A stretch of 64,000 nucleotides of DNA from a virus (IMGVR_UViG_3300035670_000025), one strand, 5' to 3'. Numbered from the stretch's first letter, positions 5,066 to 51,713 are shown. Notes: generated by a model from the letters alone, not told the origin. Translations and numbers: made by a program.

Positions 5066-5287
5066 ATGTTGACTTTTGAAAAAATCCGATGGCAGAAAAG
5101 TATCATAAATACTCATAAAAGAACATTATCTGGGATTGATGGTGGTTATCAATTAGACCACATCATATCGATAAAATTTGGATTTGACAATAACATATCT
5201 CCTGAGGCATTATCAGAAAAAAGTAATTTGAGAATGTTGCCTTGGAAAAAGAACCTAGAAAGAAATTGGGTTAAAAATACCTTTTAA
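5066..5287 (+). pseudogene. Original gp46 N-terminus (MLTFEKIRWQ) fused to an HNH endonuclease remnant
   Basis: First 10 aa align with gp46 start; YQLDHIIS..NLRMLPWKKN is an HNH C-terminal fragment; AAAATCCGATGGCA repeated at 5081 and 5332. Confidence 0.7.
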
Positions 5288-5316
5288 GTTAAAATTATTA
5301 TGTGGAGGATGTGACC

Positions 5317-7023
5317 ATTCTTATATTTTCTAAAATCCGATGGCAAAATTTTCTGTCTACGGGAAACATGTTTACGGAAATCCAACTTAATTCTCATAAT
5401 AATACTTTAATTTGTGGGGTCAATGGTTCTGGAAAAAGTACTTTGATTGATGCGATAACATTTGTTCTTTTTGGAAAATCGTTTCGTAATATAAACAAAC
5501 CACAATTAATCAACAGTACAAATTCTAAAAATATGTTGGTAGAAATAGAATTTTCTATCAATGGAAACAAATACATAGTTCGTCGTGGAATGAAACCAAA
5601 TATATTTGAAATCTATCAAAACGGAACTTTGATAAATCAATCAGCAGACAGTAAAGATTATCAATCAATTTTAGAAAAAACAATTCTTAAAATGAATTAT
5701 AAATCATTTTGTCAGGTTGTTGTTCTTGGTTCTGCAAACTTTACTCCGTTTATGCTATTACCAGCAGCACAAAGAAGAGCATTTGTTGAAGATTTGTTGG
5801 ATATACAAATATTCACAACCATGAATGCTTTGCTTAAAGATAAAACAGCAGAAAACAAGTTTGAGATCACAGATTGTGATACCAAAATCAAGATTGCAGA
5901 AAATACTTTAGAAGTGAATAAAAAGCATAGAGAACGTGCTTCTCGTGATATCATGGAATTAATTTCTCAAAAAGAAACATTGATTAAAGAAACTCAATTA
6001 GAATTAGATACTCACAATTCTGAGTTCTCTTCCTTGGAAATTAAAAGCAATCAATTACAGTCAAAAATAAGCAAGAACAGGCAGAAAAATAAGAATGCAC
6101 TGGATAAGGCATACAATATGAGAACTGCCCTAGAATCTAAATTAAAGGGCAATGAGAAGGGTATTGCATTCTATCAGGGAAATGATTCTTGTCCCACCTG
6201 TGAACAACATATTACTTCTGATTTTAAAGATAAGAAATTGCTTGATATTTCTACAAAGAAAGAAGAAAACGAATCTATTCTCAAAGAATTATCAGAAAAG
6301 ATTTCAAAACTGGAAAAGAATCAAGAGCAAATTATTTCATGGGCAGATGAATTACAACAACTAAACAAAGAACTTATTGAACTTTCTTCTAAAATTAATT
6401 TCTGCATGAAAGTAATTTCTTCATATGAGAAAGATATCAAAGATTTGAACAATAATTCGTTGGTCGAAATTGATGATACAGAAACTATTAATAAATTGAA
6501 TTATTTGAAAAAAACAAAAGAACATCTTTTTGCTCAAAGAGAACTATATAATGTTGGTCTCGTTTTGTTGAAAGATGGTGGAATTAAGGCAAAAATTATC
6601 AAACAATATATTCCAGTTATCAATCAGATGATTAACAAGTATTTGGACGATATGGAATTTTTCTGTCAATTTACTATTGATGAAACCTTTGAAGAAAAGA
6701 TAAAGTCCAGATATAGGGATGCTTTTACCTTTGAATCTTTTTCTGAAGGAGAAAAAATGAGATTGAATCTTGCTATTCTTTTTACATGGAGAGAATTGGC
6801 AAGAATGAGAAATTCAGCAGCAACGAATCTTCTAATACTTGATGAAATCATGGATTCTTCTTTAGATTCATCTGGTACTGAAGAATTCATTAAAATTGTT
6901 CAATCGTTAACAAAACGAAATAATGTATTTGTTATTAGTCATAAGACGGATCAAATACAAGAACGATTTGAAAATATTATTAGATTTGAAAAGAAAAAGA
7001 ACTTTTCAAAGATTGTAGAATAG
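5317..7023 (+). CDS. gp46: Recombination ATPase gp46 (Rad50/SbcC-like); start uncertain (ATT 5317, GTG 5302/5311)
   Basis: GVNGSGKST, CPTC zinc hook, FSEGEK, LLILDEIMD. Confidence 0.95.
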   Translation: MLIFSKIRWQNFLSTGNMFTEIQLNSHNNTLICGVNGSGKSTLIDAITFVLFGKSFRNINKPQLINSTNSKNMLVEIEFSINGNKYIVRRGMKPNIFEIYQNGTLINQSADSKDYQSILEKTILKMNYKSFCQVVVLGSANFTPFMLLPAAQRRAFVEDLLDIQIFTTMNALLKDKTAENKFEITDCDTKIKIAENTLEVNKKHRERASRDIMELISQKETLIKETQLELDTHNSEFSSLEIKSNQLQSKISKNRQKNKNALDKAYNMRTALESKLKGNEKGIAFYQGNDSCPTCEQHITSDFKDKKLLDISTKKEENESILKELSEKISKLEKNQEQIISWADELQQLNKELIELSSKINFCMKVISSYEKDIKDLNNNSLVEIDDTETINKLNYLKKTKEHLFAQRELYNVGLVLLKDGGIKAKIIKQYIPVINQMINKYLDDMEFFCQFTIDETFEEKIKSRYRDAFTFESFSEGEKMRLNLAILFTWRELARMRNSAATNLLILDEIMDSSLDSSGTEEFIKIVQSLTKRNNVFVISHKTDQIQERFENIIRFEKKKNFSKIVE

Positions 7024-7031
7024 GAGACCTA

Positions 7032-7448
7032 ATGATAAGAATAGCATTAGCAATAGTATTAGCATTTTCAACCCCAACAATAGCAGAACCATATAAAGTA
7101 TTACGGGTGTTGGATGGGGATACTGTAGAAATAGAAGCAAAATTTTTACCAAAAGAATTGAAACAAACTTTGCTTCTCAGAATTTCTGGTATTGATAGTC
7201 CAGAAATTGGAGGAAAAGCAAAATGTCCAAATGAAAATAAATTAGCACAAGAAGCAAAATCTTTTGTTATTACAGAAATTAATAAAGCAAAAGTGGTTGA
7301 CATAAAACTTATAAAATGGGATAAGTATGGAGGCAGAATAGTTGGAGATGTTTATGTAGATGGTATTTTGTTGAGTAAGAAATTGATTGCAATGAAACTT
7401 GCAGTTTCATATGATGGAAAGAAAAAACCAGATTGGTGTAACAAATAA
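7032..7448 (+). CDS. Thermonuclease (SNase) family protein with signal peptide
   Basis: VLDGDT, LRISGIDSPE, DKYGGR. Confidence 0.85.
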   Translation: MIRIALAIVLAFSTPTIAEPYKVLRVLDGDTVEIEAKFLPKELKQTLLLRISGIDSPEIGGKAKCPNENKLAQEAKSFVITEINKAKVVDIKLIKWDKYGGRIVGDVYVDGILLSKKLIAMKLAVSYDGKKKPDWCNK

Positions 7449-7459
7449 GGATTAAAAAA

Positions 7460-7948
7460 ATGCATTATCGTATTTTTAGAGACATTTTATTTGCACTAGC
7501 ATTGACATTTTTAGTTTTTGTTATTTTTACAACAAAACCCGCAAGAGCACAAATAGATTGTTTTCCAAATTGTTTTTCTTCTGAAACAAGTCAACAAAAA
7601 CTTGTAAAGGTGAAGCAACAAAAACTTGCAAAAAAGAAAAGAATCAGAACAGTTGCAAGAACAAGAAATGTAGATTCTTCTGGGTTAGCATCCTATTATT
7701 GGCAACCACAAAGAGTTGCTTCAGGAGGATGGTTTAATCCAAATGCATTGACTGCTGCACATAGAACCTTGCCTTTTGGAACAAGAGTTAGAGTTACAAA
7801 TGTAAGAAATAATAAGTCTGTAATTGTAACAATCAATGACCGTGGACCTTTTATTAGAGGAAGAATTATTGACTTATCTCTTGCTGCTGCTAAAGTGATT
7901 GCGATGACAAAATCGGGAGTGGTTCCTGTTAAAATTGAAAGGGTATAA
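7460..7948 (+). CDS. rlpA: RlpA-family lytic transglycosylase (DPBB domain)
   Basis: ASYY, LTAAHRTLPFGTRVRVTN, INDRGPF.RGRIIDLS. Confidence 0.9.
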   Translation: MHYRIFRDILFALALTFLVFVIFTTKPARAQIDCFPNCFSSETSQQKLVKVKQQKLAKKKRIRTVARTRNVDSSGLASYYWQPQRVASGGWFNPNALTAAHRTLPFGTRVRVTNVRNNKSVIVTINDRGPFIRGRIIDLSLAAAKVIAMTKSGVVPVKIERV

Positions 7949-7949
7949 T

Positions 7950-8186
7950 ATGGATTATGAAACAGCAGTGAAAGCAGAAACAATTCTGGAAATGAAAGAT
8001 AGATTTCTCAAAACTGTTATTGATGTCATGAAAATGCATGGAGACGATAAAACAGGATTGCCAATGATTTCTGCTTCAATTGTTATGTTTGTACAAGAAT
8101 TGGATAGATCAATACATCCAGGATTTTCTTTAATTGTTTCTGAACAACTCATTTCTGATGTAAGAAAGAGAAAAGATAATGGATAG
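7950..8186 (+). CDS. Hypothetical protein
   Basis: ORF in operon context. Confidence 0.55.
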   Translation: MDYETAVKAETILEMKDRFLKTVIDVMKMHGDDKTGLPMISASIVMFVQELDRSIHPGFSLIVSEQLISDVRKRKDNG

Positions 8187-9008: not shown

Positions 9009-9875
9009 ATGGAAATCAAGATTCCCGTTGCAGAATTAAAGAAGAAAAAGTTATTCCTAGCAGTTCCGATGTACGGAGGAAATTGCAGCGGAATGTTTGC
9101 CAGATCGATTGCTGATTTATCTGCAATGTGTGTGCATTATGGTGTGGCATTGCAGATGTATTTTCTATTCAATGAATCACTAATTCCCCGAGCAAGAAAC
9201 TATTGTTGTGATGAATTTATGCGTTCTGATGCAACCCATATGATGTTTATTGACGCAGATATTGGGTTTAATCCACATGATGTTATTGCTCTGCTTGCAC
9301 TACAATCAGATGAATCCGAATATGATGTTATCGGTGGTCCATATCCCAAGAAGTGCATTGCATGGGAAAAGATTAAGATGGCAGTTGATAAGGGATTTGC
9401 TGATGAAGATCCAGGTAAGTTAGAAGCATTTGTTGGTGATTATGTTTTCAATCCAAAGGGAAATCAAACTTCAATTCCATTAGGACAACCAGTTGAAGTG
9501 CTAGAAATTGGCACTGGATTTATGATGATGCGTAGAAAGACATTCCAGACTTTCGTTGAAAAGTTCCCACAATATTCATATAAACCAGATCATGTTCGTA
9601 CTGAACATTTTGATGGTTCTCGTGAAATTATGATGTTCTTCCAAGCAGAAATCGATCCAGTTTCTAAAAGATATCTATCAGAAGATTATTGGTTCTGTCA
9701 AAAGTTGCAAGAAGCAGGGTTGAAGACTTGGTTATGTCCATGGATGAAACTGCAACACGTTGGTACAATGGTGTTTGGTGGATCATTAGTTGATCTTGCA
9801 GCATTGGGTGCTAGTGCTACTGCTGATGCTGGACAACTTGATGAAATTAAGAAGAGAAAAAAGAAGGCGGGTTGA
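9009..9875 (+). CDS. GT-A-fold glycosyltransferase-like protein
   Basis: NESLIPRARN, FIDADI (DxD), GTGFMM, YLSEDYWFC. Confidence 0.7.
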   Translation: MEIKIPVAELKKKKLFLAVPMYGGNCSGMFARSIADLSAMCVHYGVALQMYFLFNESLIPRARNYCCDEFMRSDATHMMFIDADIGFNPHDVIALLALQSDESEYDVIGGPYPKKCIAWEKIKMAVDKGFADEDPGKLEAFVGDYVFNPKGNQTSIPLGQPVEVLEIGTGFMMMRRKTFQTFVEKFPQYSYKPDHVRTEHFDGSREIMMFFQAEIDPVSKRYLSEDYWFCQKLQEAGLKTWLCPWMKLQHVGTMVFGGSLVDLAALGASATADAGQLDEIKKRKKKAG

Positions 9876-22625: not shown

Positions 22626-22837
22626 TGGTATCATTTAGTCGTTCTATTAATTCAACCATTATCAGGTTGCAAAATTTGCATTCTGCTCTTGCATTTGTAA
22701 CTGAATCTACAAAGTATGATATTGATATTAGAGATTATATGTGTGAATCTTTAATGAAAGAAATTAAAGATATTGAAAATGAGATTGGGTTAGTTATGTC
22801 TGAAGAAGCATGGGAAAATTATAGAGGGGTGATCTAA
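22622..22837 (+). CDS. Hypothetical protein
   Basis: Coupled to gp41 stop. Confidence 0.5.
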   Translation: MMVSFSRSINSTIIRLQNLHSALAFVTESTKYDIDIRDYMCESLMKEIKDIENEIGLVMSEEAWENYRGVI

Positions 22838-23031
22838 TGAATTATGATATTTCTCGCACAAACAAAATTTTTAATGTAATTGAAAAGCAAACAGGACATT
22901 GTATTAAATCTTTTGAAACTCAAAAGAAAGCATTTGAATATTGTTGTTTTCTTAATGCGGGAGGTGGATTTGATGGATTTACACCAGAATTTTTTATCAA
23001 AAATGTAAAAATTATAAATAGTGAACAATGA
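22837..23031 (+). CDS. Conserved T4-like small protein
   Basis: LNAGGGFDGFTP.F motif. Confidence 0.65.
   Translation: MNYDISRTNKIFNVIEKQTGHCIKSFETQKKAFEYCCFLNAGGGFDGFTPEFFIKNVKIINSEQ
23013..23020 (+). promoter_or_regulatory. T4-type late promoter
   Basis: TATAAATA upstream of structured intergenic region. Confidence 0.6.
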
Positions 23032-23126
23032 GTCGTGTTTATGGTTTTCCATAAGAGGCAAGTGTTTATTTAGTTTAGACGCAAGGAAGTGACGAGACCA
23101 CAGGTGGGGTTCCTCTCGTTCACGAC
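23032..23126 (+). ncRNA. Candidate structured non-coding RNA
   Basis: GTCGTG/CACGAC closing helix with internal hairpins, between late promoter and terminator, no ORF. Confidence 0.45.
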
Positions 23127-23159
23127 ATTTTTGTTTTTAATAGGCATCGTATTGCCGAT

Positions 23160-23196
23160 AAGGGAAGTAGAGGCAACTTTACTTCCCTATTTTTTT
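23160..23196 (+). terminator. Intrinsic terminator
   Basis: AGGGAAGTAGAG-gcaa-CTTTACTTCCCT + T-tract. Confidence 0.8.
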
Positions 23197-23230
23197 ATGC
23201 TATGATCCTTCATCAACAAGGAGATTGACC

Positions 23231-23323
23231 GTGAACATCTTTTATATTTCGACCGATCCAATCATTGCTGCTCAAATGATGGTAGATCGTCATGTAGTAA
23301 AAATAATTTTGTGTAATTTCTAA
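23231..23323 (+). pseudogene. Orphaned 5' fragment of the denV-like gene
   Basis: AGGAG RBS; (V)NIFYISTDPIIAAQMMVDRHVVK then stop; paralogous to start at 23912. Confidence 0.8.
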
Positions 23324-23366
23324 ATTTACTAAATAATAAAACAGAAATTGCACAAAGGAAAATTTT

Positions 23367-23915
23367 ATGACAATTCAAACCCCCCCACCAAGAAAAATGC
23401 CACAGATGGCAAGATCAGGCAAAAATAAGTATGGGAATCCAAAACCAAAAATACAATGCCAAAAATGTAAAGAATATTTGCGTGAAAATAAATTTTCTTT
23501 AATAGACAAAACAGACAGCAAAAAAGGTCGGAGGTCAAATTGCAAATCTTGTTCTGCAAAAAAAGCAAAAATAGAACGAGATAGAAGAAAAAACGATTGG
23601 AAATATAAACCGACCTTATCTATGCTGAATAACTCAAAGCAAAGAGCAAAAAATAGTAATTTGGAACATACTTTAGTTATTGAAGATATAGTTATACCGG
23701 ATTATTGTCCGGTGTTCGGCATTAAGTTAGAAACAGGAAATAGAAAAAATCATATAAACGCACCCAGTATTGATAGAATTGACAACACTAAAGGTTATAT
23801 TAAAGACAATATTTTAATTATGTCAGTAAAAGCAAATATATTAAAAAAAGATGCAACGTTAGATGAATTGATTATGCTTGGAAAATGGGCAGAAAAAATG
23901 AAAGACAAACTATGA
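23367..23915 (+). mobile_element. Free-standing HNH-type homing endonuclease
   Basis: CxxC pairs; CPVFG..PSIDRIDNTKGY..N....S..AN..K. Confidence 0.85.
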
Positions 23916-24448
23916 ATATTTTTTATCTATCACCAAATGCAAAACTATCAGCACAAACGTTGGTCAATAGACATGTTGTTTCTCAAACAAAAGAAACAGC
24001 ACAACTATTATCTACAGCACACAGAGTATTAGATGGTAATATGGTAGTTGTTCCAAATGAAAATGGAAGGAAAATGAAACGGTGGGTATTACGAGATGAT
24101 AGAGAAACCAAGTTATATCTTGCTTCTCACACAAATCATCCAAGTGCAATTTGGTGTAGAGAAACATCTGCTAACTATCAGTGGTTGTATTGGCATTTTG
24201 TTGGATTGTTGGATGAATATACTCACAGATATGGCAAAGTTCACAAATGTGCATCTATGAAAGATGTATTATCGGAGTTGCCAAAGAGCATTAAGTTTGG
24301 TGGATTTAGTGAACCAACTCCTGCTATGGATGAGCAGTATATTGTGAAAGGTAACAGTTTGAAGTCGTATATGAATTATTATAAATATGGTAAAGTGCAT
24401 TTGCACGCATGGACCAACAGATCACCACCGGACTGGATTAAGGAATGA
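23912..24448 (+). CDS. Pyrimidine-dimer DNA glycosylase (DenV-like) family
   Basis: MNIFYL..HVV..E.AQLLSTAHR, H.NHPS..W, EYTHRYGKVH, PAM. Confidence 0.75.
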   Translation: MNIFYLSPNAKLSAQTLVNRHVVSQTKETAQLLSTAHRVLDGNMVVVPNENGRKMKRWVLRDDRETKLYLASHTNHPSAIWCRETSANYQWLYWHFVGLLDEYTHRYGKVHKCASMKDVLSELPKSIKFGGFSEPTPAMDEQYIVKGNSLKSYMNYYKYGKVHLHAWTNRSPPDWIKE

Positions 24449-25479
24449 TGAGATTTAAAACCTTTATAAATGAGTCTTATGGAAGATACTTTCGCAGAGA
24501 AAAAGCAAGAAAAAAAGGAAGCAGAGTAAACAAAACTGTTTCCGATTATTTTGAAATGGCCACGGTTGTGCACACTCACAATTCATTAAGTCATCCAAAT
24601 CAACATCCAGAATATTTAGATCACATTGAAGATTTAAAAACAAAATTGGACACGATCAGAGCAAACAATCCTCATTTAAAAGACAGGTTGGATTCTCAAG
24701 ATTCTTTAGCAAAAAAATCTTCAAAATTATTAATAGATAAATTGTCTGAAAAAAGGTCTAAGGAAAAAGATTTTACTTTACAAGATGTATCTGAAGTAAG
24801 GCATGTAAAAAATGCTAGACATTTATTTAGTTTAATAGGAAGAACCCCTGACAGTTCTTTTAGTGCTAGAAGATATCCACACGATTTAATGTTTAAACTA
24901 AGAACCGGTTCTTTTCATGGAGCATCGTTGAAAGGATCAGAAAAAGATTTTGGAACATACAACAATCTTGGGGCTCGCAGGCATTCATCAGAGGACACGA
25001 CTGGAATAGCATCTCATGCGTATGCTGATTATAATTCTGCAAGAACCAGAGAACTTGGTTCAAACAAGACAAAAGAAAATAAAGAAAGCAAAAGATCTTC
25101 TTATTTAGAAACAAGAAAAGGCATTGTTGATAAAATAACAAAGAATTTCAATGGTGCAAATTCAATAGATCAACAAAGAAAATATCTTCATTCTTTATTA
25201 AAACCAGAATCGGATATACCATATTATACTGTTTTGCCACATAGAAATCAAGGACAGGGTGAAGCAATTCTTCATGGCAGAGGAACAATGAGAAAAAGGA
25301 TCAATTCTGCTACAAGATTGTCTGCTACCCAACATGGAAACGGAGTTATACAATATCATACGCATCATGAAGATGGACGAAAAATACCTCTATTTTATGT
25401 AGAACACCGGTCTACAAAAGGTCCATGGGGTTCATTACAATTTAATGTAAAACTGGGACAATTTAAGAAAGAAGAATAA
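24445..25479 (+). CDS. PD-(D/E)xK-like nuclease candidate with capsid-targeting-like N-terminus
   Basis: MMRFKTFINE; YFEM...PHDLMF...GASLK. Confidence 0.45.
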   Translation: MMRFKTFINESYGRYFRREKARKKGSRVNKTVSDYFEMATVVHTHNSLSHPNQHPEYLDHIEDLKTKLDTIRANNPHLKDRLDSQDSLAKKSSKLLIDKLSEKRSKEKDFTLQDVSEVRHVKNARHLFSLIGRTPDSSFSARRYPHDLMFKLRTGSFHGASLKGSEKDFGTYNNLGARRHSSEDTTGIASHAYADYNSARTRELGSNKTKENKESKRSSYLETRKGIVDKITKNFNGANSIDQQRKYLHSLLKPESDIPYYTVLPHRNQGQGEAILHGRGTMRKRINSATRLSATQHGNGVIQYHTHHEDGRKIPLFYVEHRSTKGPWGSLQFNVKLGQFKKEE

Positions 25480-28681: not shown

Positions 28682-31085
28682 CATAAACGAAGACTTAAGA
28701 AAATGGTTTAAGGAAAAATGGGTTCGTTTTGACACCAAAGGGAAGATTAAAGGTGATTGTGCCAAAGAACCAGGAGAAGGCAAACCAAAATGTTTGCCTA
28801 GGGCAGAAGCACATGCTTTAGGTGAAAAAAGAAGAGCATCAGCAGCAAGAAGAAAAAGAAGAGAAGATCCAAATGCTGAAAGAAAAGGAAAGGCAAAATT
28901 CGTGAAAACTCATAACGAAGAAGTTCTTTTGGAAAAGAATGTACCCACAAATCCTAAACTATGGGCACAAGCAAAAGCACAAGCAAAGAAAAAGTTTAAG
29001 ATATATCCTTGTGTGCCAATGGACAGTCAAGCAATTACTAGAGAAGGATTGAAATCTTTTGATGAACTTTCTATAGGAGAAGAAATACTTACATACAATA
29101 TTAATAAAGATGTGTTGGAATGGGGTCCAATAACAAATCTACATTTTTATGAAAATGCTCCTTTGAAAAAAATATATAAATCAACCGGATTTTGTATTAA
29201 AGCAACAGAAAATCATAAATGGGTTGTCAAGACCGGAACTGCTTATGATCAAGTATCTTTGGTAGAAACTAAAGATATACATAAAAGAATGAGAATTGTC
29301 ACAGGAGCAGTTTTAGAGAACGAAGAAAATAAATTTTTAGAGGAAAATTGGTCTAAAAAGGATAATTGGGTATCTAAAGTTTTATCTTGGTCTAAAGAAA
29401 CGAGAGAAGTTTTCTTGGCATCTTCTATTATATATGATGGGCATGATGTTGGGGGATCATCAAAAATCAAAGATAGACATACTTTTGGATTTACTCAAAA
29501 AAACGATGATCATTTTTGGTCTGCGTTGTTTGCTGCGTATCTTAACGGTTATCATATCAGTTTTTATGAAAAAACAGAAAGTATATCTGGAGCATCTATA
29601 ATTAGAAATAAAAAATACCATAACACACAAAACCTAATTATAGAAGATGCGGGGTCTGAAGATGTTTGGTGCCCAACAACAGAAAATCAAACTTGGGTAA
29701 TGGTACAAAATGGATTTATAACCATTACAGGAAATTCTGCCTATGCGAATGGTTGGGCAGCAAAATGGTATAAATCTAAAGGTGGTGGATGGAAATCCTT
29801 GAATGAAGATTATGAACATGAAATGGCCAGAAACGAATTGCGAACAGCAATGAGAGGCATTGAAAGACTGATGAAGCATCTTGATGGTGAGGGAGAATTA
29901 GAAGCATGGGTACAGTCTAAACTGACTAAAGCAGCAGACTATATTGATACTCTTGCTGACTATATGGATTCAAGGGACGAAACAGTTAAAGAAGCATATG
30001 AACTAATAGAAGAAGCAAAAAAGAAAATGGATAAAAAAACAATTCCACAAACAGTTCAAATGATGACACCTGGATCAAATCCTTATGCTGATGATAGCAC
30101 ATCTCCTTCTTATGTTTCTACACCAGGACAAGCAATAACAGAAGCAAGAAGATCATTAAAGGGTGAATATAAAAGATTGAGTTCTGTAAAAGGACCAAAG
30201 GCAGCACGTGAAAGAGAACTTTTAAGAACTTTAGCAGCAGCAAGAAAAAGAAAAGCATCTGAAAAAAAAGCAGAAAAACAACCAGATCCACCTATGAAAC
30301 CAAAAGAAGATACTCCAAGAGAAAGAATTGCATCTGCTTTTAATAGACCAGGATACACTTCAAAACCAGAAGAAACTAAAAAAGAAACTGGACCAACTTC
30401 TCCTTTTTGGGCATATGTAAAAGATATTAAAAAATCAGGCGAACAATACAACCCAAAAAAAGGAAAACAACTGATTAAAGCAGAATATAAAGAAGCAAAA
30501 TCAAACATTCAACCAAACGATCAATTTGGTTGGTTGAAAAGACACAGTGCCGAAGAATCATATTTAAAACAAATGCAACACCACAGAGATTTAAAAAATT
30601 CTATAGTTCACAGATTATTGAAAGGAATTGGGTTGAGAGAAGAAGGGGGAGCAGGAGATATGGGAACCACAGAACTCACTAAGAACTATATTGAACATAC
30701 TCCAGGACAATTACCAATTGATGACAAGAAAAAGAAAATTACTGATACTATCAAACAAACAATAAAAGAAGAAGTATTGTGTGAGGCAGTTCCAAGAATA
30801 GGTGCTGGACAAACTACAAGAAGAACAGTTAGATTTCAAGAAAAGAAAAGATCTGCACCTCCTGGAAGAAAAGTTACTATAAAAAGACCAACAGCAAAAC
30901 ACAATGTTGCAACACGTGGACCAGGACCAATAAGAAAACCAAGACCAGGATCAACTGTTGCTGGTGGTATTCGTAATACAGCAAAATTTGTGAAAGCAGC
31001 AACAAAGAGCAGAAGAATGTCTCAAGTATCCATGAGAAATCGTCAAAATGCAAGACGAACATTAACAATGTCAGCAAGAGGATAA
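28674..31085 (+). CDS. Multi-module putative virion protein (DUF5872-like motifs) containing an intein
   Basis: LRKWFKEKWV..KPKCLP; exteins rejoin as KFKIYP-SAYANGWAAKWYK.KGGGW. Confidence 0.65.
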   Translation: MTDINEDLRKWFKEKWVRFDTKGKIKGDCAKEPGEGKPKCLPRAEAHALGEKRRASAARRKRREDPNAERKGKAKFVKTHNEEVLLEKNVPTNPKLWAQAKAQAKKKFKIYPCVPMDSQAITREGLKSFDELSIGEEILTYNINKDVLEWGPITNLHFYENAPLKKIYKSTGFCIKATENHKWVVKTGTAYDQVSLVETKDIHKRMRIVTGAVLENEENKFLEENWSKKDNWVSKVLSWSKETREVFLASSIIYDGHDVGGSSKIKDRHTFGFTQKNDDHFWSALFAAYLNGYHISFYEKTESISGASIIRNKKYHNTQNLIIEDAGSEDVWCPTTENQTWVMVQNGFITITGNSAYANGWAAKWYKSKGGGWKSLNEDYEHEMARNELRTAMRGIERLMKHLDGEGELEAWVQSKLTKAADYIDTLADYMDSRDETVKEAYELIEEAKKKMDKKTIPQTVQMMTPGSNPYADDSTSPSYVSTPGQAITEARRSLKGEYKRLSSVKGPKAARERELLRTLAAARKRKASEKKAEKQPDPPMKPKEDTPRERIASAFNRPGYTSKPEETKKETGPTSPFWAYVKDIKKSGEQYNPKKGKQLIKAEYKEAKSNIQPNDQFGWLKRHSAEESYLKQMQHHRDLKNSIVHRLLKGIGLREEGGAGDMGTTELTKNYIEHTPGQLPIDDKKKKITDTIKQTIKEEVLCEAVPRIGAGQTTRRTVRFQEKKRSAPPGRKVTIKRPTAKHNVATRGPGPIRKPRPGSTVAGGIRNTAKFVKAATKSRRMSQVSMRNRQNARRTLTMSARG
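29010..29735 (+). mobile_element. Intein (242 aa) with degenerate LAGLIDADG-like remnant
   Basis: Cys1 CVPMDS (block A), ATENHKW (block B), DVWCPTT...ITGN/S (blocks F/G, Ser+1). Confidence 0.9.
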
Positions 31086-35067: not shown

Positions 35068-36111
35068 ATGATGTGGTTAGATAAAAAGTATATTCTATTA
35101 CTATCAAGTCAATTACCTCACTTTAAACAAAAATCAGAAAACTTGTTTAACTTTCGTTGTATCTTATGTGGTGATTCAAAAACCAATAAGAACAAAACAA
35201 GAGGTTATATCTATTTCAAATCTGGTAAATATGTTTACCATTGTCATAATTGCAATGCTTCACATCATTTTGTGACAATACTAAAGAAAATTAATTCAAC
35301 CCTGTATGATCAATATCTACAAGAAAAACTATCAAGTTCTAATGAACAACCAACGGTTGAACAAAAGAAAACTGTAGTAAAAAATTCTAATTCATACTTA
35401 TCACAACTTAAAAAAGTATCTCAATTAAATGCAGATCACCTATGCAAAAAGTATGTAGTATCTAGGCAAATTCCCACTACAATCCATTATAAATTATACT
35501 ACTGTTCCAAGTTCAAGGAATGGACAAATAATATACTCCCAGGAAAATTTAATGATCTGAAGATAGATTATCCAAGACTTATTATTCCAATGTTTTGGAC
35601 TGATGGATCTTTGATAGGATATCAAGGTAGAGCATTACATCCTAATGATTCTATCAGATATATTACTATTATGCTTGATGAAACGAAACCTAGAGTATAT
35701 GGCATAGATACAACCGATTTTAACTATAAGTATTACATATTTGAAGGACCAATAGATTCAATGTTTATTTCTAATTCTATTGCTACTTGTGGTGGTCAAC
35801 TTACACGAGAGATGGATTTGTTGAATAAAAATGTCTCAAATGCTGTTGTGGTTTATGATAATGAACCAAGAAATAAAGACATTGTGAAGAACATATTGAC
35901 TGCAATTCAAAAGGGATATAAGGTTTGCCTGTGGCCACCATCTATGGAGCAGAAAGATATAAATGATATGATATTGAAGAAAGTCTCTGGTACTTATTGT
36001 AAGACTGAAGTTATACAAAGAGCAGCAGAAAAAATCAAATCAATCATTGATGATAATACATATCAAGGATTGGAAGCAGAACTTAAATTTTCGTCATGGA
36101 GAAAAGTATGA
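35068..36111 (+). CDS. gp61: DNA primase gp61
   Basis: RCILCGDS..CHNC, GYQGRAL, EGPIDSMF, DNEPRN, KDINDM. Confidence 0.95.
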   Translation: MMWLDKKYILLLSSQLPHFKQKSENLFNFRCILCGDSKTNKNKTRGYIYFKSGKYVYHCHNCNASHHFVTILKKINSTLYDQYLQEKLSSSNEQPTVEQKKTVVKNSNSYLSQLKKVSQLNADHLCKKYVVSRQIPTTIHYKLYYCSKFKEWTNNILPGKFNDLKIDYPRLIIPMFWTDGSLIGYQGRALHPNDSIRYITIMLDETKPRVYGIDTTDFNYKYYIFEGPIDSMFISNSIATCGGQLTREMDLLNKNVSNAVVVYDNEPRNKDIVKNILTAIQKGYKVCLWPPSMEQKDINDMILKKVSGTYCKTEVIQRAAEKIKSIIDDNTYQGLEAELKFSSWRKV

Positions 36112-36166
36112 CATATAAAGTTTAATTTTAATTGGTCTTTAAAATATTCAAATGGAGACTAATGTT

Positions 36167-36721
36167 ATGCATTACAGGAAAATATGGGAATCATATCACA
36201 ACGAATCTATACCAGAAAAATATGAAATACATCATGTTGATGGTAATAGAAATAACAACCACCCAGATAATCTTTTATGTGTTTCTATCGAAGAACATTT
36301 AAAAATACATAAAACACAAGAAGATTGGGGGGCAGTACAAGCAATTCTTGCTAGAATGGAAAATAGAGATGGTATAATTGAAGCAGCAAGAAATTTTCAA
36401 TTGCAAAAATTGCAAGAAAATACTCACAATTTTCAACGCATGAGTAAAAAGAGACGAACTGAAATAAGTAAAAAAACTATGAAAAAAAGATTGAAAATAG
36501 AAGGGGTTGCTTTTTTAGGTATAGATGATGTTAAATTGAATAGTAAAAAAGCAGGGTTGGTTGCAGCACAAAAAAAATCAGGATTTTTAAACCCTGATAC
36601 TGATAAACACGGAAGCAATTATGTTAAAGATACTTTTTGGTGGACGAATGTTGAAACCGGAGTAAGAATTAGAAGTAAATTTGCTCCAAATGAAAAATGG
36701 AAAAAAGGAATGAAGTTATGA
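36167..36721 (+). mobile_element. Free-standing HNH homing endonuclease
   Basis: YEIHHVDGNRNNN.PDNL...EEH..IH. Confidence 0.85.
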
Positions 36722-37404
36722 CATATGATTGGCAAAAAGTAAAACTCGTAGCAATAACTCAACCAGATATTGATAATGAACAAGGAATAAAAATTAATGC
36801 AGAAGAATTTATTGCATATTGCGCCAGAGTTTCAAATAAATCAAATCAGATGAATGTTCAAACAGCAAACAAATTGTTGAAATATTGCATAACAAATAAT
36901 CATTGGAGCATTTTTGAAATGGTATCTTTAACCATGGAAATTGAGACTACCCGAGATATTGGTAGACAGATTCTACGACATCGTTCATTTAGTTTTCAGG
37001 AGTTTAGTCAACGATATGCAGAATCTGGTGAAGAATTTCCTGATAAGGATATGAGAGAATGCAGACTACAAGATATGAAGAATCGTCAGAATTCTCTTGA
37101 AACTGATAATGATATGCTGCGGATGAATTGGTTGCTTGCACAAACGAGAGTGCAAGAAATTGCATTGCGTGAATATAATTGGGCAATTAAAGCAGGTATT
37201 GCTAAAGAGGTAGCAAGATCAATTCTTGCAGAAGGTCTTACTATGTCCAGAATCTATATGAGTGGGACACTTAGGTCTTGGATTCATTATTGCCAATTGA
37301 GAATGGAAAATGGAACACAAAAAGAACATCAGGATATTGCTGACAAGTGTTGGAATATTCTGCTTGAAAAGTTTAAGTTTCTGAAGGATTTGAAAAATGA
37401 ATAG
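36718..37404 (+). CDS. thyX: Flavin-dependent thymidylate synthase
   Basis: HWSIFE, RQILRHRSFSFQEFSQRY, AKEVAR, TQKEH. Confidence 0.95.
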   Translation: MTYDWQKVKLVAITQPDIDNEQGIKINAEEFIAYCARVSNKSNQMNVQTANKLLKYCITNNHWSIFEMVSLTMEIETTRDIGRQILRHRSFSFQEFSQRYAESGEEFPDKDMRECRLQDMKNRQNSLETDNDMLRMNWLLAQTRVQEIALREYNWAIKAGIAKEVARSILAEGLTMSRIYMSGTLRSWIHYCQLRMENGTQKEHQDIADKCWNILLEKFKFLKDLKNE

Positions 37405-37915
37405 TATAGAAAGAATGAGAGAAAAAGAAAAACTTCTCACATATGAAGAAGTAAAAGAAATGTTTGATTACGATTCAGAGAAAGGAATATTGATTTGGAA
37501 AACACGCCCGATTAACTCAAAATATCTCATTGGAACTGTTGCTGGTAGTTTACACTCAACAGGATATGTAACTATAAGAATAAAAAAAATAGAATATAAA
37601 TCTCATAGAATTATATGGTTGTTGATGACGGGTAAATGGCCAGAAAACCAAATAGATCACATAAACGGCATTAGAAATGATAATCGTTTTTGTAATTTGA
37701 GAGAAGCAACCGGTTCTCAGAATAATGCCAACACTCCGAGAAGAATCAACGTTTCTGGATATAAAGGAGTTTCTAAAGAGCGCAAAAAATGGAGAGCAAG
37801 AATAAGTTTAAATAATAAACCGATGTCTATAGGATATTATGATACTCCAGAAGAAGCACATGCGGCATATGTTGCCAAAGCAAAAGAACTATTTGGAGAC
37901 TACGCAAAAGTTTGA
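37397..37915 (+). mobile_element. HNH endonuclease with C-terminal AP2 domain
   Basis: HRIIW, IDHINGIRNDNR..NLR, SGYKGV..KWRARI..GYY.TPEEAH.AY. Confidence 0.9.
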
Positions 37916-37958: not shown

Positions 37959-39851
37959 ATGGATTTGTACCAGCAGTACATACACAAGAGCAGATACGCA
38001 AGATATCTTTCTAATGAAAATCGTAGAGAACATTGGCAAGAAACTGTGTCACGATATGTAGACTTTATGCAAGAACATATTAAGACACAATGTAATTATA
38101 CATTATCAAATTCTCTCAAAATAGAAATTTATGAAGCAATTTTGAACATGGAAGTAATGCCTTCTATGCGAGCAATGATGACTGCTGGAAAGGCACTAGC
38201 AAGAGATAATACTGCTGGATACAATTGCTCATACCTTCCTGTAGATGATCCTAAAGCATTTGATGAATGTATGCATATTCTGATGAATGGTACAGGTGTT
38301 GGATTTTCTGTAGAAAGACAATATATCAATAAATTGCCAGAAATCCCAGAACAAATGTTTGATTCTGATACAACAATTGTTGTTAAAGATTCAAAAGAAG
38401 GTTGGGCAAAAGCATTGAGAATGCTTGTAGCACTTCTATATTCTGGAGAAATTCCAAAGTGGGATTTGTCAAAGGTTCGTCCAGCAGGAGCACCACTCAA
38501 AACATTTGGTGGAAGATCATCTGGTCCAGCACCGATGAATGAACTATTTAAGTTTGTTATTCGTATCTTTACAAATGCAAGAGGACGAAAACTAACATCA
38601 CTTGAATGTCATGATATCATGTGTAAGATTGCTGAAGTGGTTGTTGTAGGTGGAGTTCGTCGTTCTGCAATGATTTCACTATCAAATCTATCAGATGATA
38701 GAATGAGAAATGCAAAGTCAGGAGCATGGTGGGAAGCAAATGTTCAACGAGCACTATCGAATAATTCTGCTGTCTATACAGAGAAACCCGAAGTCGGAAT
38801 GTTTCTTGAAGAATGGTTATCACTATATCAGTCGAAAAGCGGAGAACGTGGTATCTTTTCTAGAGAAGCTTCACAAAAAGTAGCAAAGAAAAATGGTCGT
38901 AGAGATGCAAATCAAGAATTTGGAACAAATCCATGTTCAGAAATTATTCTTCGTCCATATCAATTTTGCAATCTAACTGAAGTGATTGTTCGTGTTGATG
39001 ACACTGAAGAATCATTAGCAAGAAAAGTACGTTTAGCAACTATTCTTGGTACGTTCCAATCTACTCTTACATATTTTCCATATCTAAGAAAGATTTGGCA
39101 AAAGAATACAGAAGAAGAAAGATTGCTTGGTGTTTCACTAACTGGAATTTATGATTCTGCATTGACAAATAATTATAAAGATCCAGAACTACCACACAGG
39201 TTAGAAATGCTAAGACAGATTGCAGTTGATACAAATCAACAGTTTGCAGAAGAATTAGGAGTTCCTGTTTCTGCTGCTATTACTGCTGTCAAACCTTCTG
39301 GCACTGTTTCGCAATTGGTTGATGCTGCTTCTGGTATTCATCCAAGACACGATCCATATTATTTCAGAAGAGTTCGTTCTGATAATAAAGATCCGTTGAC
39401 TAAGCATATGATTGATGCTGGAATTCCACATGAACCAGATGTTACTAAACCAGATTCAACAACAGTTTTCACATTTCCAAAGAAAGCACCAGATAATGCT
39501 ACAATGAGAAGTGATGTTTCTGCCATCGATCACCTAGAACTATGGTTGAAGTATCAGCGTCATTGGTGTGAACATAAACCTTCTGTAACAATTTCTGTTA
39601 AGGAAGAAGAATGGCCAACTGTTGGTGCATGGGTATGGGAACACTTTGATGAAATGTCTGGTGTATCATTCTTACCGCATGATGGAGGAACATATCGTCA
39701 AGCACCATATGAAACTGTTTCAAAGGAACAGTATGAAGAACTATTGTCTATGATGCCAACTAACATTGATTGGACACAATTGGTTGAAAAGGAAGACAAT
39801 GTTGAAGGTGTACAGACATTAGCATGTGTTGCTGGTGGTTGTGAGATTTAA
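37959..39851 (+). CDS. nrdJ: Class II (B12-dependent) ribonucleotide reductase
   Basis: VMPSMR, YNCSY, GGVRRSA, TNPCSEI, KPSGTVSQL, C-term CVAGGCEI; no nrdB adjacent. Confidence 0.93.
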   Translation: MDLYQQYIHKSRYARYLSNENRREHWQETVSRYVDFMQEHIKTQCNYTLSNSLKIEIYEAILNMEVMPSMRAMMTAGKALARDNTAGYNCSYLPVDDPKAFDECMHILMNGTGVGFSVERQYINKLPEIPEQMFDSDTTIVVKDSKEGWAKALRMLVALLYSGEIPKWDLSKVRPAGAPLKTFGGRSSGPAPMNELFKFVIRIFTNARGRKLTSLECHDIMCKIAEVVVVGGVRRSAMISLSNLSDDRMRNAKSGAWWEANVQRALSNNSAVYTEKPEVGMFLEEWLSLYQSKSGERGIFSREASQKVAKKNGRRDANQEFGTNPCSEIILRPYQFCNLTEVIVRVDDTEESLARKVRLATILGTFQSTLTYFPYLRKIWQKNTEEERLLGVSLTGIYDSALTNNYKDPELPHRLEMLRQIAVDTNQQFAEELGVPVSAAITAVKPSGTVSQLVDAASGIHPRHDPYYFRRVRSDNKDPLTKHMIDAGIPHEPDVTKPDSTTVFTFPKKAPDNATMRSDVSAIDHLELWLKYQRHWCEHKPSVTISVKEEEWPTVGAWVWEHFDEMSGVSFLPHDGGTYRQAPYETVSKEQYEELLSMMPTNIDWTQLVEKEDNVEGVQTLACVAGGCEI

Positions 39852-42779: not shown

Positions 42780-43166
42780 ATGTGGTTATATAATGAAACA
42801 GAATTTACTGAAGATATGATTGGTGATAATGTTGGATTTGTTTATATAATAACAAATTTAACCAATGATAAAATGTATGTTGGCAAAAAATCCTTCACAA
42901 AATCAAAAACTTATCAGAAAAATAAAAAGAAGAAAAAAACTAGAGTATCATCTGATTGGATAACATATACGGGATCTAATGATCAATTAAATGAAGATAT
43001 TAAAAATGGAGATCAAATAAAAAAAGAGATCATTCATTTATGTAAGTCAAAGGGGTGGATGTCTTATATGGAAACGAAAGAAATTCTTGTTCGTGATTGT
43101 TTAATAGATGATATGTATTATAATACATGGTTGTCAGCAAGAATAAGAAGAACACATTTAAAATAA
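42780..43166 (+). CDS. GIY-YIG nuclease
   Basis: GFVYIITN...YVGKK, DW..Y.GS, YYN. Confidence 0.8.
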   Translation: MWLYNETEFTEDMIGDNVGFVYIITNLTNDKMYVGKKSFTKSKTYQKNKKKKKTRVSSDWITYTGSNDQLNEDIKNGDQIKKEIIHLCKSKGWMSYMETKEILVRDCLIDDMYYNTWLSARIRRTHLK

Positions 43167-43170
43167 GGAT

Positions 43171-43413
43171 ATGAATATGACACATGAAGCATATTGTGAA
43201 GATTTCTTTAAACCTGCAAATGAAAATGTTGTTAAAATAGTTGAACAAATATCTATGTGGAGTAGAAAATCTTATGTGTTATATCCCACTGATGTTTTGA
43301 ATATGTTAATTGAACACAATTTGATATCTCAAGTTGAAGTAGAAAAAATTGTTAATGATACTCGACAAAAACCACTTGACTTAACTCTCCCACAGAGATA
43401 TATTGGTGAATAG
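43171..43413 (+). CDS. Hypothetical protein
   Basis: ORF. Confidence 0.45.
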   Translation: MNMTHEAYCEDFFKPANENVVKIVEQISMWSRKSYVLYPTDVLNMLIEHNLISQVEVEKIVNDTRQKPLDLTLPQRYIGE

Positions 43414-43450
43414 AACGGGTTGAGGTTTTGCGTACTCGTTCAACTAATAT

Positions 43451-43528
43451 GTGGATGTAGTCCAATAGGTAGGAGACACGAAACTTAAAATTTTGACAGT
43501 GTGGGTTCGAATCCCACCATCCACACCA
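43451..43528 (+). tRNA. tRNA-Leu(TAA), short variable region
   Basis: GTGGATG/CATCCAC acceptor, loop CTTAAAA, TTCGAAT, CCA. Confidence 0.85.
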
Positions 43529-43799: not shown

Positions 43800-43883
43800 G
43801 GTAGATATGGCAAATGAGGTGCCCTGCGGCTCATAACCGTATGTCGAAAGACCGAGTTGGTTTGATTCCAACATCTACCACCA
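43800..43883 (+). tRNA. tRNA with CAT anticodon (Met or Ile2), long variable arm
   Basis: GGTAGAT/ATCTACC, loop CTCATAA, V-arm GTC-GAAA-GAC, T-loop TTTGATT, CCA. Confidence 0.75.
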
Positions 43884-48325: not shown

Positions 48326-48330
48326 AATAA

Positions 48331-48934: not shown

Positions 48935-48998
48935 TTCTTTGGGAAGGCATTTTTTTATATAAATATATGAACAAGCATTTTTAACAAAGGAGAATACA

Positions 48999-49723: not shown

Positions 49724-49731
49724 GAGATACA

Positions 49732-49896: not shown

Positions 49897-49899
49897 TGC

Positions 49900-49928
49900 T
49901 TGACATCACCCGAACACTATGCTACTTT
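49900..49928 (+). promoter_or_regulatory. sigma70-type early promoter
   Basis: TTGACA-N17-TACTTT with GC upstream of -10. Confidence 0.6.
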
Positions 49929-49970
49929 GTGGATGCTCAATGAAGAGCATGTAAAACAAAGGAGAATAGT

Positions 49971-50213: not shown

Positions 50214-50247
50214 ACACCAATCTCTTTTTTTATTATGGAGAACGATA

Positions 50248-50568
50248 ATGCCTTTTGTACCACTTACTGCCGATACCGATATTGAATTGATTCTTAATGA
50301 ACTTTGGATGTTTAATCCAAATGCAAACGGATCATATGCAACCAAACTTAAAAACCATTTTGTTAAATTGCATAAAGAAGGTACAATTAGAATTATTACT
50401 GATAATCTGCTTGAGGAAAATCGTTGGGATGCAACTTTAAATATTGACATTAAAGATATGTCAGCATATGGTGTAATTAAGCAAGTTATACAACCTTTAA
50501 TGGAAAATGCAAGATTTGATACAGTTCGTATGCTAAACAATAATGTTGTTGAGTTCTGGTGGGATTGA
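50248..50568 (+). CDS. Hypothetical protein
   Basis: GGAG RBS; ends FWWD. Confidence 0.55.
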   Translation: MPFVPLTADTDIELILNELWMFNPNANGSYATKLKNHFVKLHKEGTIRIITDNLLEENRWDATLNIDIKDMSAYGVIKQVIQPLMENARFDTVRMLNNNVVEFWWD

Positions 50569-50586
50569 TATGCAACTATAATGTGC

Positions 50587-50615
50587 TTGACATCCCGATT
50601 TGCCTGTGCTATAGT
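50587..50615 (+). promoter_or_regulatory. sigma70-type early promoter
   Basis: TTGACA-N17-TATAGT. Confidence 0.75.
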
Positions 50616-50645
50616 ATGTGCATAATCAAACAAAGGAGAAATGTT

Positions 50646-51005
50646 ATGGACATCCATAACGGTCTTGACATTATTGATTCTCGTGATATCGTTCATCGAT
50701 ATAATGAGATTGTTGGTGATCCTGAGTTTCTTGATGAGGCAACTCGTCTTGAAAAACTAATCCGTCAAGGTGAAACATCATCTGAATGGGATGATGGAAT
50801 TCCAATGATTCATGAGGATTTCTTTGTAGAATATGTAAAAGATCTGATTGATGATTGTTGGGATATCGCAGCAGATATAAATAAGTTCAGTTCTCAGTGG
50901 CCTTATCGTCATCTTAAGATTGATTATGATGCTGCTGCTGAAGAACTGAGGAGTGATTATACCAACATTGACTTTGATGGTGTAACCTATTACATCAGGG
51001 CATAG
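50646..51005 (+). CDS. Acidic ArdA-like protein
   Basis: D/E-rich; C-term IDYDAAAEELRSDY...FDG.TY. Confidence 0.45.
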   Translation: MDIHNGLDIIDSRDIVHRYNEIVGDPEFLDEATRLEKLIRQGETSSEWDDGIPMIHEDFFVEYVKDLIDDCWDIAADINKFSSQWPYRHLKIDYDAAAEELRSDYTNIDFDGVTYYIRA

Positions 51006-51019
51006 TCCCTGATGACTTT

Positions 51020-51043
51020 TCTAGTGTAGCTCAATGGTAGAGC
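51020..51043 (+). pseudogene. Truncated tRNA 5' half
   Basis: TCTAGTG-TA-GCTC-AATGGTA-GAGC: acceptor strand plus complete D-arm, then breaks off. Confidence 0.7.
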
Positions 51044-51062
51044 TTTTACTTGATTGTAATGC

Positions 51063-51136
51063 TCTGGAGAGCCGAACAAGGTGGACGGGACTGTCTGTTA
51101 AACAGTATACGGTAGGTTCGATCCCTACCTCCAGAG
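51063..51136 (+). tRNA. Divergent tRNA-Asn(GTT), no encoded CCA
   Basis: TCTGGAG/CTCCAGA, ACTGT-CTGTTAA-ACAGT, GTAGG-TTCGATC-CCTAC. Confidence 0.8.
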
Positions 51137-51194
51137 CATTACAATCAAAGTTATATAAATACTTTCAGTTCGAGATAAATTGGGAGTATTTACT

Positions 51195-51713
51195 TTGAAT
51201 AAAGGTTCAGAACGAGTCATAAAATGGAGAAGACGCACCAAACATAAAATGGTTGAAGCTATGGGAGGTTGTTGTAAATTATGTGGATATGATAGATGTC
51301 AAGATGCAATGGATTTTCATCACATTGATCCAAATGAAAAAGAGTTTAGTTTTTCATCTGTCAGAGCATCACCCAAATCGTTATTATCATTAATTAATGA
51401 ACTAAAAAAGTGTGTTTTATTATGTTCACGATGTCATAGGGAAGTTCATGCCGGGATGGTTAAAGTTGAAATGCCATCTGTTTTGGATGAAAGCAAATTA
51501 ATAAGTGAAGTTGAATTAAAAAGAAAATTAAAACAACAATACACAGTTGTTACTCAAAAACAAGATAGACGAAAGATATTTTTGACTGATGAACAATTGT
51601 TAGAGTTGTTGAAAGAATATGATGGTAATAAATCTGCTCTTGCCAGATACCTAAATGTTAGTGAAACTGCTATTAGAAAAAAGTTGAGTTCAATCCCTAG
51701 ATCTATTTTTTAA
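51195..51713 (+). mobile_element. HNH endonuclease with C-terminal HTH (start approximate, TTG)
   Basis: GGCCKLCGY..DFHHIDP..K..ELKKCVLLCSRCHREVH; NKSALARYLNVSETAIRK. Confidence 0.85.

Follow-up and report, generated by a model that had tools for sequence, protein, structure and literature searches.

How can an endonuclease gene enter the coding sequence of a conserved phage gene and leave that gene working? We addressed this question in IMGVR_UViG_3300035670_000025, a stretch of 64,000 nucleotides (nt) from an uncultured T4-like myovirus, called the window here in its whole length (33% G+C). The usual view is that free-standing homing endonucleases spread between phages sharing both flanks. 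A preliminary description of the window pointed to four loci, gp46, a denV-like gene, thyX and a tRNA gene, at which an HNH element was said to lie between an orphaned original 5' end and a second, divergent copy of that end. Such elements were proposed to insert inside the conserved target and to carry a recoded, resistant replacement start. Our analysis indicates that the pattern of orphan and substitute is real, going well beyond chance at gp46, denV and the tRNA gene and being plausible at thyX. The arrangement as first described holds at gp46 and denV, differs in its order at the tRNA gene and is weak at thyX. We interpret the loci as free-standing homing-endonuclease genes (HEGs) coupled to an end of their target, where a cut and one-sided repair left both the orphan and the substitute, and we give this interpretation a probability of roughly three in four.

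A megablast search of GenBank phages with 8 kb of the window gave zero matches, i.e. a close sequenced relative was not found, and the window's gp46 protein shares about 45% identity with its counterparts in Stenotrophomonas phage DLP_6, Sinorhizobium phage phiM12 and cyanomyoviruses. The comparison set consisted of IMG/VR and Logan contigs, which contain relatives at 70-85% identity plus near-identical strains. Presence and absence of the insertions is polymorphic among relatives at all four loci. HEG-less relatives were found for denV (L048-L050 and a strain ~99% identical to the window), gp46 (L001/L002), thyX (L151/L159) and tRNA-Asn (L184). The loci appear in identical arrangements in contigs of several independent samples, which argues that an assembly artefact is not the cause. 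In the alignment with element-less relatives that the preliminary description had called for, the orphans match up to the breakpoint at all four loci, and this alignment identifies each of them as ancestral.

The denV-like locus is the decisive case and the strongest of the four. It comprises the following features.

23231-23310, + strand: original 5' end of the denV-like gene, now an orphan of 80 nt that retains a Shine-Dalgarno (SD) sequence and a GTG start of its own; its frame stops at 23321-23323
23311-23991, + strand: inserted cassette of 681 nt, made up of a hairpin that holds a late-promoter-like box, then the nuclease gene, then 80 nt of substitute 5' end
23367-23915, + strand: intact free-standing nuclease gene, 182 amino acids (aa), whose stop overlaps the start of the working denV-like gene
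23912-24448, + strand: working denV-like gene (Pyr_excise, Pfam PF03013), ATG at 23912, of which nt 1-80 (23912-23991) are the foreign substitute

Uninterrupted denV-like genes stand behind matching upstream genes in L048, L049 and L050. In nucleotide alignments, the orphan tracks these relatives to a sharp breakpoint and the working gene is similar to them only beyond that point. The orphan is identical to L049 at 76/84 nt, and its upstream region and SD also match (86.8% identity over 394 nt upstream). The substitute start agrees with L049 at 47/84 over its first 84 nt, and the gene past the substitute at ~86%. Orphan and substitute agree with each other at 46/84. Public contigs were then aligned over window positions 22700-24600 to look for an empty-site allele. 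A lagoon metagenome contig (run X6, depth 151) joins 23310 directly to 23992, with 6 differences over 22700-23310 and 7 over 23992-24455, and marine run X7 contains the identical joint. This strain is ~99% identical to the window and, read over the joint, encodes the canonical uninterrupted protein. Thus, 23311-23991 is a single insertion unit inside the coding sequence, and its position is fixed exactly. Orphan and substitute both measure exactly 80 nt, and zero recipient bases were lost. The empty-site joint has no letters in common, which argues against a deletion via recombination between the copies. The proposed succession of orphan, nuclease and second start is therefore borne out here, both by the L049 alignment and by the empty-site contigs.

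The claim of recoding fared less well. The substitute has SQTKE where 81/82 viral relatives have K-M-x-x-E, and it retains the final Glu, which from our own alignment we take to correspond to catalytic Glu23 of T4 endonuclease V. S-Q-x-K-E is a natural minority allele class, represented by 9/120 matches in a search limited to the first 40 residues. This indicates that the substitute is a donor allele and not a fresh recoding. As a side observation, denV-like genes of this class in L194, L196 and L193 also lie near nuclease-like open reading frames (ORFs), a sample too small for an association. These are a 33%-identical homologue of the window denV nuclease domain on the opposite strand to the denV-like gene (L194:1411-1731, minus strand), an ORF overlapping the denV start with weak Phage_endo_I and TnsA-like matches (L196:874-1353), and a Pfam HNH gene two genes upstream of the denV-like gene (L193:565-1125).

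The denV-locus nuclease matches phrog_3322 'endonuclease' (E 4e-32), phrog_1035 (E 2.5e-25) and one HNH phrog (E 1.2e-8). It is full length in comparison with its homologues, with conserved columns intact, and lacks the D-H-x-H residues of the F-CphI/Endo VII family (PMC6083498). Homologues with 66-67% identity are found directly 5' of denV-like genes in L128/L129, touching or overlapping their starts; orphans were looked for upstream of these nucleases and none was seen. The hairpin of the cassette has a z-score of -3.9 around the promoter-like box, and its pairing with the SD is only partial.

At the tRNA-Asn locus, a whole RNA gene has been substituted, and the features are as follows.

51020-51043, + strand: 24-nt orphan from the 5' part of the ancestral tRNA-Asn(GTT), comprising its acceptor strand and D-arm
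51050-51148, + strand: substitute tRNA-Asn(GTT) (51063-51137) with stem extension; detected by ARAGORN, Rfam tRNA 46.5 bits, fold z-score -4.4
51154-51198, + strand: T4-type late promoter box TATAAATA (51154-51161) in the 5' arm of a hairpin, which pairs with the SD of the HNH gene (51182-51186)
51195-51713, + strand: HNH homing-endonuclease gene with a C-terminal HTH; likely start TTG 51195, longest ORF from 51180

The 24-nt orphan pattern has one match in viral contigs, in L184, a relative that keeps synteny with the window (75-77% identity). There an intact tRNA-Asn(GTT), located between tRNA-Asp and tRNA-Arg, begins with exactly these letters (24/24). The match stops after tRNA position 24. 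The orphan described earlier is thus upheld, but the second copy is a whole tRNA-Asn before the HNH gene and not the tRNA-Arg after it; the latter (52049) was rejected as a copy of the orphan since its likeness is limited to the generic D-arm. The order at the locus is orphan, substitute tRNA-Asn, TATAAATA box, hairpin and HNH gene. The substitute is a complete tRNA-Asn whose acceptor stem, D-arm and anticodon stem all differ from the orphan and the ancestral type, and an exact pattern derived from it was absent from viral contigs. These alignments mark the substitutes at both denV and the tRNA as foreign. By eye alone, the end of the HNH ORF (about 51690-51712) looks like a 3' remnant of the former tRNA-Asn, a resemblance that we left out of account. 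The tRNA-Asp(GTC) that stands just before tRNA-Asn in L184 (minus strand 9128-9203) is cleanly missing at window 51005-51019.

The HNH protein matches phrog_35854 HNH (E 2.8e-32) as well as Pfam HTH_8 and HTH_11, and scores 16.7 bits against Pfam HNH, under the cut-off. Viral and metagenome contigs searched with the 148-aa ORF and the tRNA-locus HNH gave no relatives, and homologues (59-95% identity) came via protein search, from L185, L187, L188 and L189. Each of them has a tRNA-Asn(GTT) within about 65 nt upstream, which indicates that tRNA-Asn and HNH gene form a conserved unit. L185 also contains a shortened copy of the window's tRNA-Asn orphan. A perfect 13-bp extension of the acceptor stem (51050-51062 / 51136-51148) encloses the substitute, with the discriminator base paired too. 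Extensions of 13-14 bp are present in the window, L185, L187 and L188; the extension is weak in L189, and the ancestral tRNA-Asn of L184 lacks it. The extensions of the window and L187 differ at nine positions with pairing kept. Our guess is that the extension may have a role in processing, for instance as an RNase III site. The hairpin before the HNH gene (-16.9 kcal/mol, z-score -5.0) pairs the SD with sequence overlapping the late promoter, and an SD-pairing hairpin is kept in all four HNH relatives, with equivalents named in L185, L187 and L189. The tRNA-Asn(GTT) genes at L187:2352-2437, L188:2186-2271 and L189:1776-1863 measure 86-88 nt and have a long variable arm as well as a class-II-like D-arm, which is unusual for tRNA-Asn; the window version has a like D-arm and a short variable region.

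At the gp46 locus, the nuclease gene is present as a remnant.

4009-5064, + strand: gp47 (Mre11-like nuclease subunit), 351-aa ORF, with Metallophos detected in identical copies
5066-5095, + strand: orphan original gp46 start, 10 codons (MLTFEKIRWQ), fused in frame to the nuclease remnant
5096-5287, + strand: homing-endonuclease remnant, C-terminal core of ~55 aa alone, with ~140 N-terminal residues gone
5302-7023, + strand: working gp46 (Rad50/SbcC-like; SMC_N, AAA_23), with its extreme 5' end replaced

In the closest relatives, L001/L002 (gp46 72% identical), gp46 directly follows gp47. The window ATG at 5066 occupies the exact position of their gp46 start and its 10 codons resemble theirs. 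That these 10 codons, which open the 73-aa ORF, belong to the nuclease family (where one Leu column is invariant) was considered and rejected, because they agree with the relatives' gp46 start in both place and sequence. The remainder of the ORF matches positions 143-200 of the 228 in phrog_5104 (E 2.4e-16), a family of unknown function, and has 739 matches in a representative library, mostly of ~200 aa and aligned at their C-terminus. The N-terminal Cys-rich region of these homologues is absent from the protein at this locus, indicating that the nuclease gene is a decayed remnant. Thus, the orphan foreseen at this locus lies where the relatives start, and the supposed HNH element has been reduced to a C-terminal core. 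The remnant conserves a D-H...N...N motif and has no Pfam match. In fold searches with its predicted model (predicted local distance difference test, pLDDT, 79), all matches were weak (E about 3, Z up to 3.5), and nearly all of them were to colicin, pyocin and Cas9 HNH DNases. Full-length homologues are encoded immediately upstream of gp46 in L177/L178. L177 has its own 5-codon orphan overlapping the gp47 stop, which encodes MINFK as in the real gp46 start with three synonymous differences. The restart of gp46 in the window lacks an in-frame ATG and may use GTG 5302, GTG 5311 or ATT 5317, with an SD at 5304-5309; gene callers picked GTG 5311. The denV-like gene behind the homologous nuclease in L129 (about 3010-3020) also seems to start with ATT.

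The first 30 nt of the new gp46 start are 53-60% identical to the relatives, in comparison to about 75-85% further on, and a 14-nt exact repeat connects the orphan (5081-5094) with gp46 (5332-5345). All contigs with the exact gp47 or the exact 73-aa ORF (6 with the latter) show the window's arrangement, and the exact-protein look-up of gp47 returned this occupied arrangement only, i.e. an empty-site strain was not found. The 14-nt core is lineage-specific and not in L001/L002, so that the gp46 donor was very close or the repeat is partly a local duplication. Could all four loci then have arisen by local tandem duplication of gene starts, with an endonuclease gene between the copies, no foreign donor and no targeted cut? 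The gp46 core fits this explanation, as do the two thyX copies described below, which are identical. It fails for denV, where the substitute is ~55% identical to both the orphan and the lineage allele whereas the orphan is 90% identical to the latter, and where the empty-site strain reveals one single insertion. It fails equally for the tRNA, whose substitute differs in three of its parts, and it does not account for nuclease families that are tied to these same targets in unrelated phages. We therefore regard local duplication as unlikely to explain the loci in general, although some of the repeated sequence at gp46 and thyX may have arisen in this way.

The thyX locus carries the shortest of the putative orphans.

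36108-36116, + strand: possible orphan thyX start, ATGACATAT, overlapping the stop of a primase-like gene (35068-36111)
36152-36721, + strand: HNH_3 homing-endonuclease gene, likely start 36167 (Pfam HNH_3 E 1.7e-11), whose stop overlaps the thyX start
36718-37404, + strand: working thyX (Pfam Thy1 E 7.6e-39)

An identical 9-mer occurs at 36108-36116 and at the real thyX start (36718-36726). The start of thyX is thus duplicated as had been claimed, although the copy, being identical, is not divergent. The ATG that overlaps the primase-like stop is followed by two further codons and then by junk. In L151/L159, thyX abuts the primase-like gene, and in L159 its start overlaps the primase-like stop. 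L158 has a homologous HNH_3 gene directly 5' of thyX and a conserved leader of ~45 nt with a late-promoter box; just before this leader stand five codons that resemble its own thyX start (11/15 nt; MNSAK vs MNTAK) and are suggestive of a further orphan. The exact-protein look-up of the primase-like protein returned the occupied arrangement only and no empty-site strain for thyX.

With a repeat this short, the nucleases may be ordinary intergenic free-standing endonucleases, and the orphans at thyX and perhaps gp46 may be chance matches or leftover start signals. Random 9-mers recur in AT-rich DNA, and the L158 codons are only partly identical to their thyX start. However, both thyX copies are found exactly at the junction of a start codon with the preceding stop, and the chance for a random pair of ATGA sites in the window to agree over the next 5 nt is 0.0025. 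The gp46 orphan lies at the exact ancestral start position and matches the relatives over 10 codons, and the denV and tRNA orphans are far beyond chance. We consider this explanation highly improbable; the thyX pattern is weak alone and becomes plausible in the context of the other loci. Immediately downstream, a second nuclease gene (37397-37915; HNH_3 and AP2, phrog_99 E 1e-66) overlaps the thyX stop and precedes a class II ribonucleotide reductase gene (37959-39851). A 24-nt repeat (79%) at this gene, with a ~12-nt resemblance to the thyX 3' end just behind it, was considered as a scar, found too weak and not counted.

Some general features are shared between the loci. The nuclease gene is immediately upstream of its target at gp46, denV and thyX, with touching or overlapping stop and start codons, and immediately downstream of tRNA-Asn at the tRNA locus. 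The nuclease ORFs carry their own SD and promoter boxes. An HNH profile match is significant for the thyX-locus protein (Pfam, above the cut-off) and for the tRNA-locus protein (phrog). Comparison across contigs connects each nuclease family with its target in other phages, where the same families appear to leave orphans as well, clearly in L177 and L185 and suggestively in L158.

An upstream fragment next to an endonuclease gene could also be a true first exon, with the nuclease encoded in a self-splicing intron of group I or II. Introns near phage endonuclease genes are common and their short first exons are often missed, as in the ICP1 terminase (PMC10448857). A search of the whole window on both strands with Rfam 15 returned tRNAs and noise only and no intron family at E<=1, a search that highly divergent introns could escape. 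The orphan is duplicated in a complete start at each downstream gene, and an intron would have no need of such a copy. The denV insert itself contains the duplicate start and the orphan frame stops after 3 more codons, and the substitute tRNA-Asn is complete by itself. From these sequences splicing at the four loci appears unlikely, and introns as the origin of the whole pattern are an explanation to which we attach almost no weight. The proposal that the elements insert inside a conserved target, with a replacement start and without splicing, is essentially right, being supported by this result, by the orphans that track HEG-less relatives to the breakpoint and by the 681-nt empty site of denV.

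We infer the nuclease activity and the repair pathway from the arrangement of the loci, and propose the following sequence of events. The nuclease would cut a HEG-less allele inside the conserved 5' part of the target, at or next to the 23310/23311 boundary in denV and after position 24 in tRNA-Asn. The breakpoints coincide with the points of divergence of the substitute alleles. The break would leave two 3' tails. The gene-side tail would invade a co-infecting donor genome by homology and prime the copying of the donor's target start (or whole tRNA), nuclease gene and promoter leader, and, where homology to the donor is missing on the far side, the far-side tail would undergo illegitimate joining at the break. 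The recipient's original start would persist as an orphan and the gene would now run from the donor-derived start. Since the insert supplies a substitute start or a whole tRNA, the target still works. The donor piece, differing at the cut site (SQTKE for K-M-x-x-E, or another tRNA-Asn body), would be immune to recutting. One-sided repair of this kind predicts the features seen at denV, i.e. equal lengths, no base loss and a divergence that ends at the break.

Several observations weigh against this scheme. The same nuclease families are found without orphans in L128, L129, L178 and L187, which indicates that orphans are not an obligatory part of the element; in our scheme, these phages would represent two-sided homing or later loss of the orphan. 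A donor genome with the exact denV or tRNA cassette was not found in the searches. The thyX duplicate extends over 9 nt only. The nuclease at denV has no Pfam match and no PDB sequence match, and its AlphaFold model is poor (pLDDT 58). The gp46-locus nuclease is truncated and probably inactive, which would make the locus a fossil, and the lineage-specific core there is more in keeping with a local duplication or a very close donor than with a distant donor. Finally, the cut sites and the immunity are deduced from the breakpoints.

The scars show nuclease entry with one-sided homology, inside coding sequence, with the target gene kept working. Each orphan marks a probable cut site and points to the putative immunizing changes, and through orphans thousands of metagenomic nuclease genes become testable pairs of enzyme and target. 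The empty and occupied denV strains provide a natural before-and-after pair. The tRNA-Asn cassette indicates that a phage tRNA can give way to an iso-acceptor built on a different body, a point relevant to the turnover of phage tRNA sets. For annotation, the consequence of short orphans and of non-canonical restarts (GTG or ATT at gp46) is that starts are mis-called and spurious small ORFs appear.

Other features of the window were noted outside the four loci. A SegE-like GIY-YIG endonuclease gene (42780-43166, Pfam E 1.5e-33) is located just upstream of tRNA-Leu (43451), and the alignment with L184 covers the end of the endonuclease gene together with the tRNA-Leu region (window 42948-43528). 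An 806-aa ORF (28665-31085) has a weak Intein_splicing match (E 0.04, residues 132-315) and an insert bounded by Cys...His-Asn by eye, and may hold an intein, the host gene being one for a virion or internal protein. A tandem family of some ten small ORFs (60-80 aa, 40-90% mutual identity by self-BLAST) occupies 55428-61330. ARAGORN predicts an 84-nt tRNA-Met(CAT) at 43800-43883, for which the Rfam tRNA model gives no match even at E<=1.

We compared the loci with known mobile systems. In intronless homing by T4 SegF, SegG, MobE and SegB, flanking markers are co-converted (PMC2988022, PMC2790892, PMC2330249). As there, a nuclease gene stands beside a conserved gene whose HEG-less allele would be cut within, and repair would copy the nuclease gene together with donor flanks. 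The tRNA locus of the window has a parallel in SegB, whose targets are tRNA genes and which spreads tRNA genes nearby. Late promoters within hairpins that sequester the ribosome-binding site are known from T4 I-TevI to I-TevIII, segB and Aeh1 mobE (PMC2988022), and the tRNA-locus HNH gene has the same design. In the T4 cases, homology on both sides yields a clean intergenic insertion with no leftover, whereas here one junction is non-homologous, lies inside a coding sequence or tRNA, and leaves an orphan. One-sided repair itself has a precedent. As summarized in a review, Parker, Belisle and Belfort (1999) described T4 intron homing by one-sided illegitimate double-strand-break repair with limited exon homology, and in its passage on ectopic sites that review proposes one-sided repair at microhomology as a route to them (PMC2988022). 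Homology on one side suffices for acquisition in that case as here, the other junction being there at microhomology. Unlike those engineered intron donors in the laboratory, the loci in the window are natural products with intron-less nuclease genes.

Nucleases can also be tied to changes in essential genes. One such case is the T4 cassette of mobA and the gene 60 bypass, which Bonocora et al. are said to have described in 2011. Another, as reported in a review, is phage Aeh1, in which mobE splits nrdA (Friedrich et al. 2007, via PMC2988022). As in both cases, the nuclease is associated with a change in an essential gene that would destroy the target site, and function is kept without RNA splicing. 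They differ in that rescue there occurs by ribosomal bypass or by two-piece subunits, and here by a duplicate substitute gene end. In the phage literature on endonuclease-split genes, collaborative homing and nucleases at recombination boundaries, we found no orphan-plus-substitute gene ends described. New in this analysis are the nucleotide-exact natural empty site of denV, the recurrent unit of tRNA-Asn and HNH gene with its covarying stem, and the orphans in other phages. We tentatively suggest, at somewhat less than even odds, that these cassettes form a distinct class of phage homing element, in which a nuclease gene is permanently coupled to an immune substitute for the destroyed part of its target. 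If so, such cassettes could enter essential genes internally with homology on one side only, and would offer a third route to a harmless homing endonuclease besides introns or inteins and clean intergenic insertion. In that case, cut sites could be read from orphans in metagenomes by sequence alone, and the tRNA version would comprise a complete re-built tRNA-Asn, a covarying 13-bp stem and its own switch of late promoter and hairpin.

The closest known parallel is the mobile endonuclease ORFs (mORFs) of fungal mitochondria, which the cassettes resemble in the way they work without belonging to that group. In mORFs, a foreign C-terminus is inserted in phase and the native C-terminus is displaced, as in the gene hybrids of Allomyces macrogynus atp6 and Glomus atp6, atp9, cox2 and nad3 (PMC3630166). 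Partial C-terminal duplications of cob and atp6 likewise occur beside degenerate endonuclease ORFs (PMC6279837). The gp46, denV and thyX loci share with mORFs an endonuclease ORF inside a gene, an inserted gene end that stays in frame and a displaced native end. In both systems the native copy is nearer to sister taxa, at 91-98% vs 64-81% in Glomus and 90% vs 56% for denV in the window. This holds at denV (76/84 vs 47/84) and the tRNA (24/24) and is not clear for gp46 and thyX. The differences are that mORFs replace the 3' end, of which the replaced 5' end here is the mirror image; that the host is a phage genome; that the nucleases are HNH-type or unclassified and not LAGLIDADG or GIY-YIG; and that a whole tRNA is replaced in one case. 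Unlike in mORFs, a natural empty-site allele in a ~99%-identical genome fixes the inserted unit to the nucleotide.

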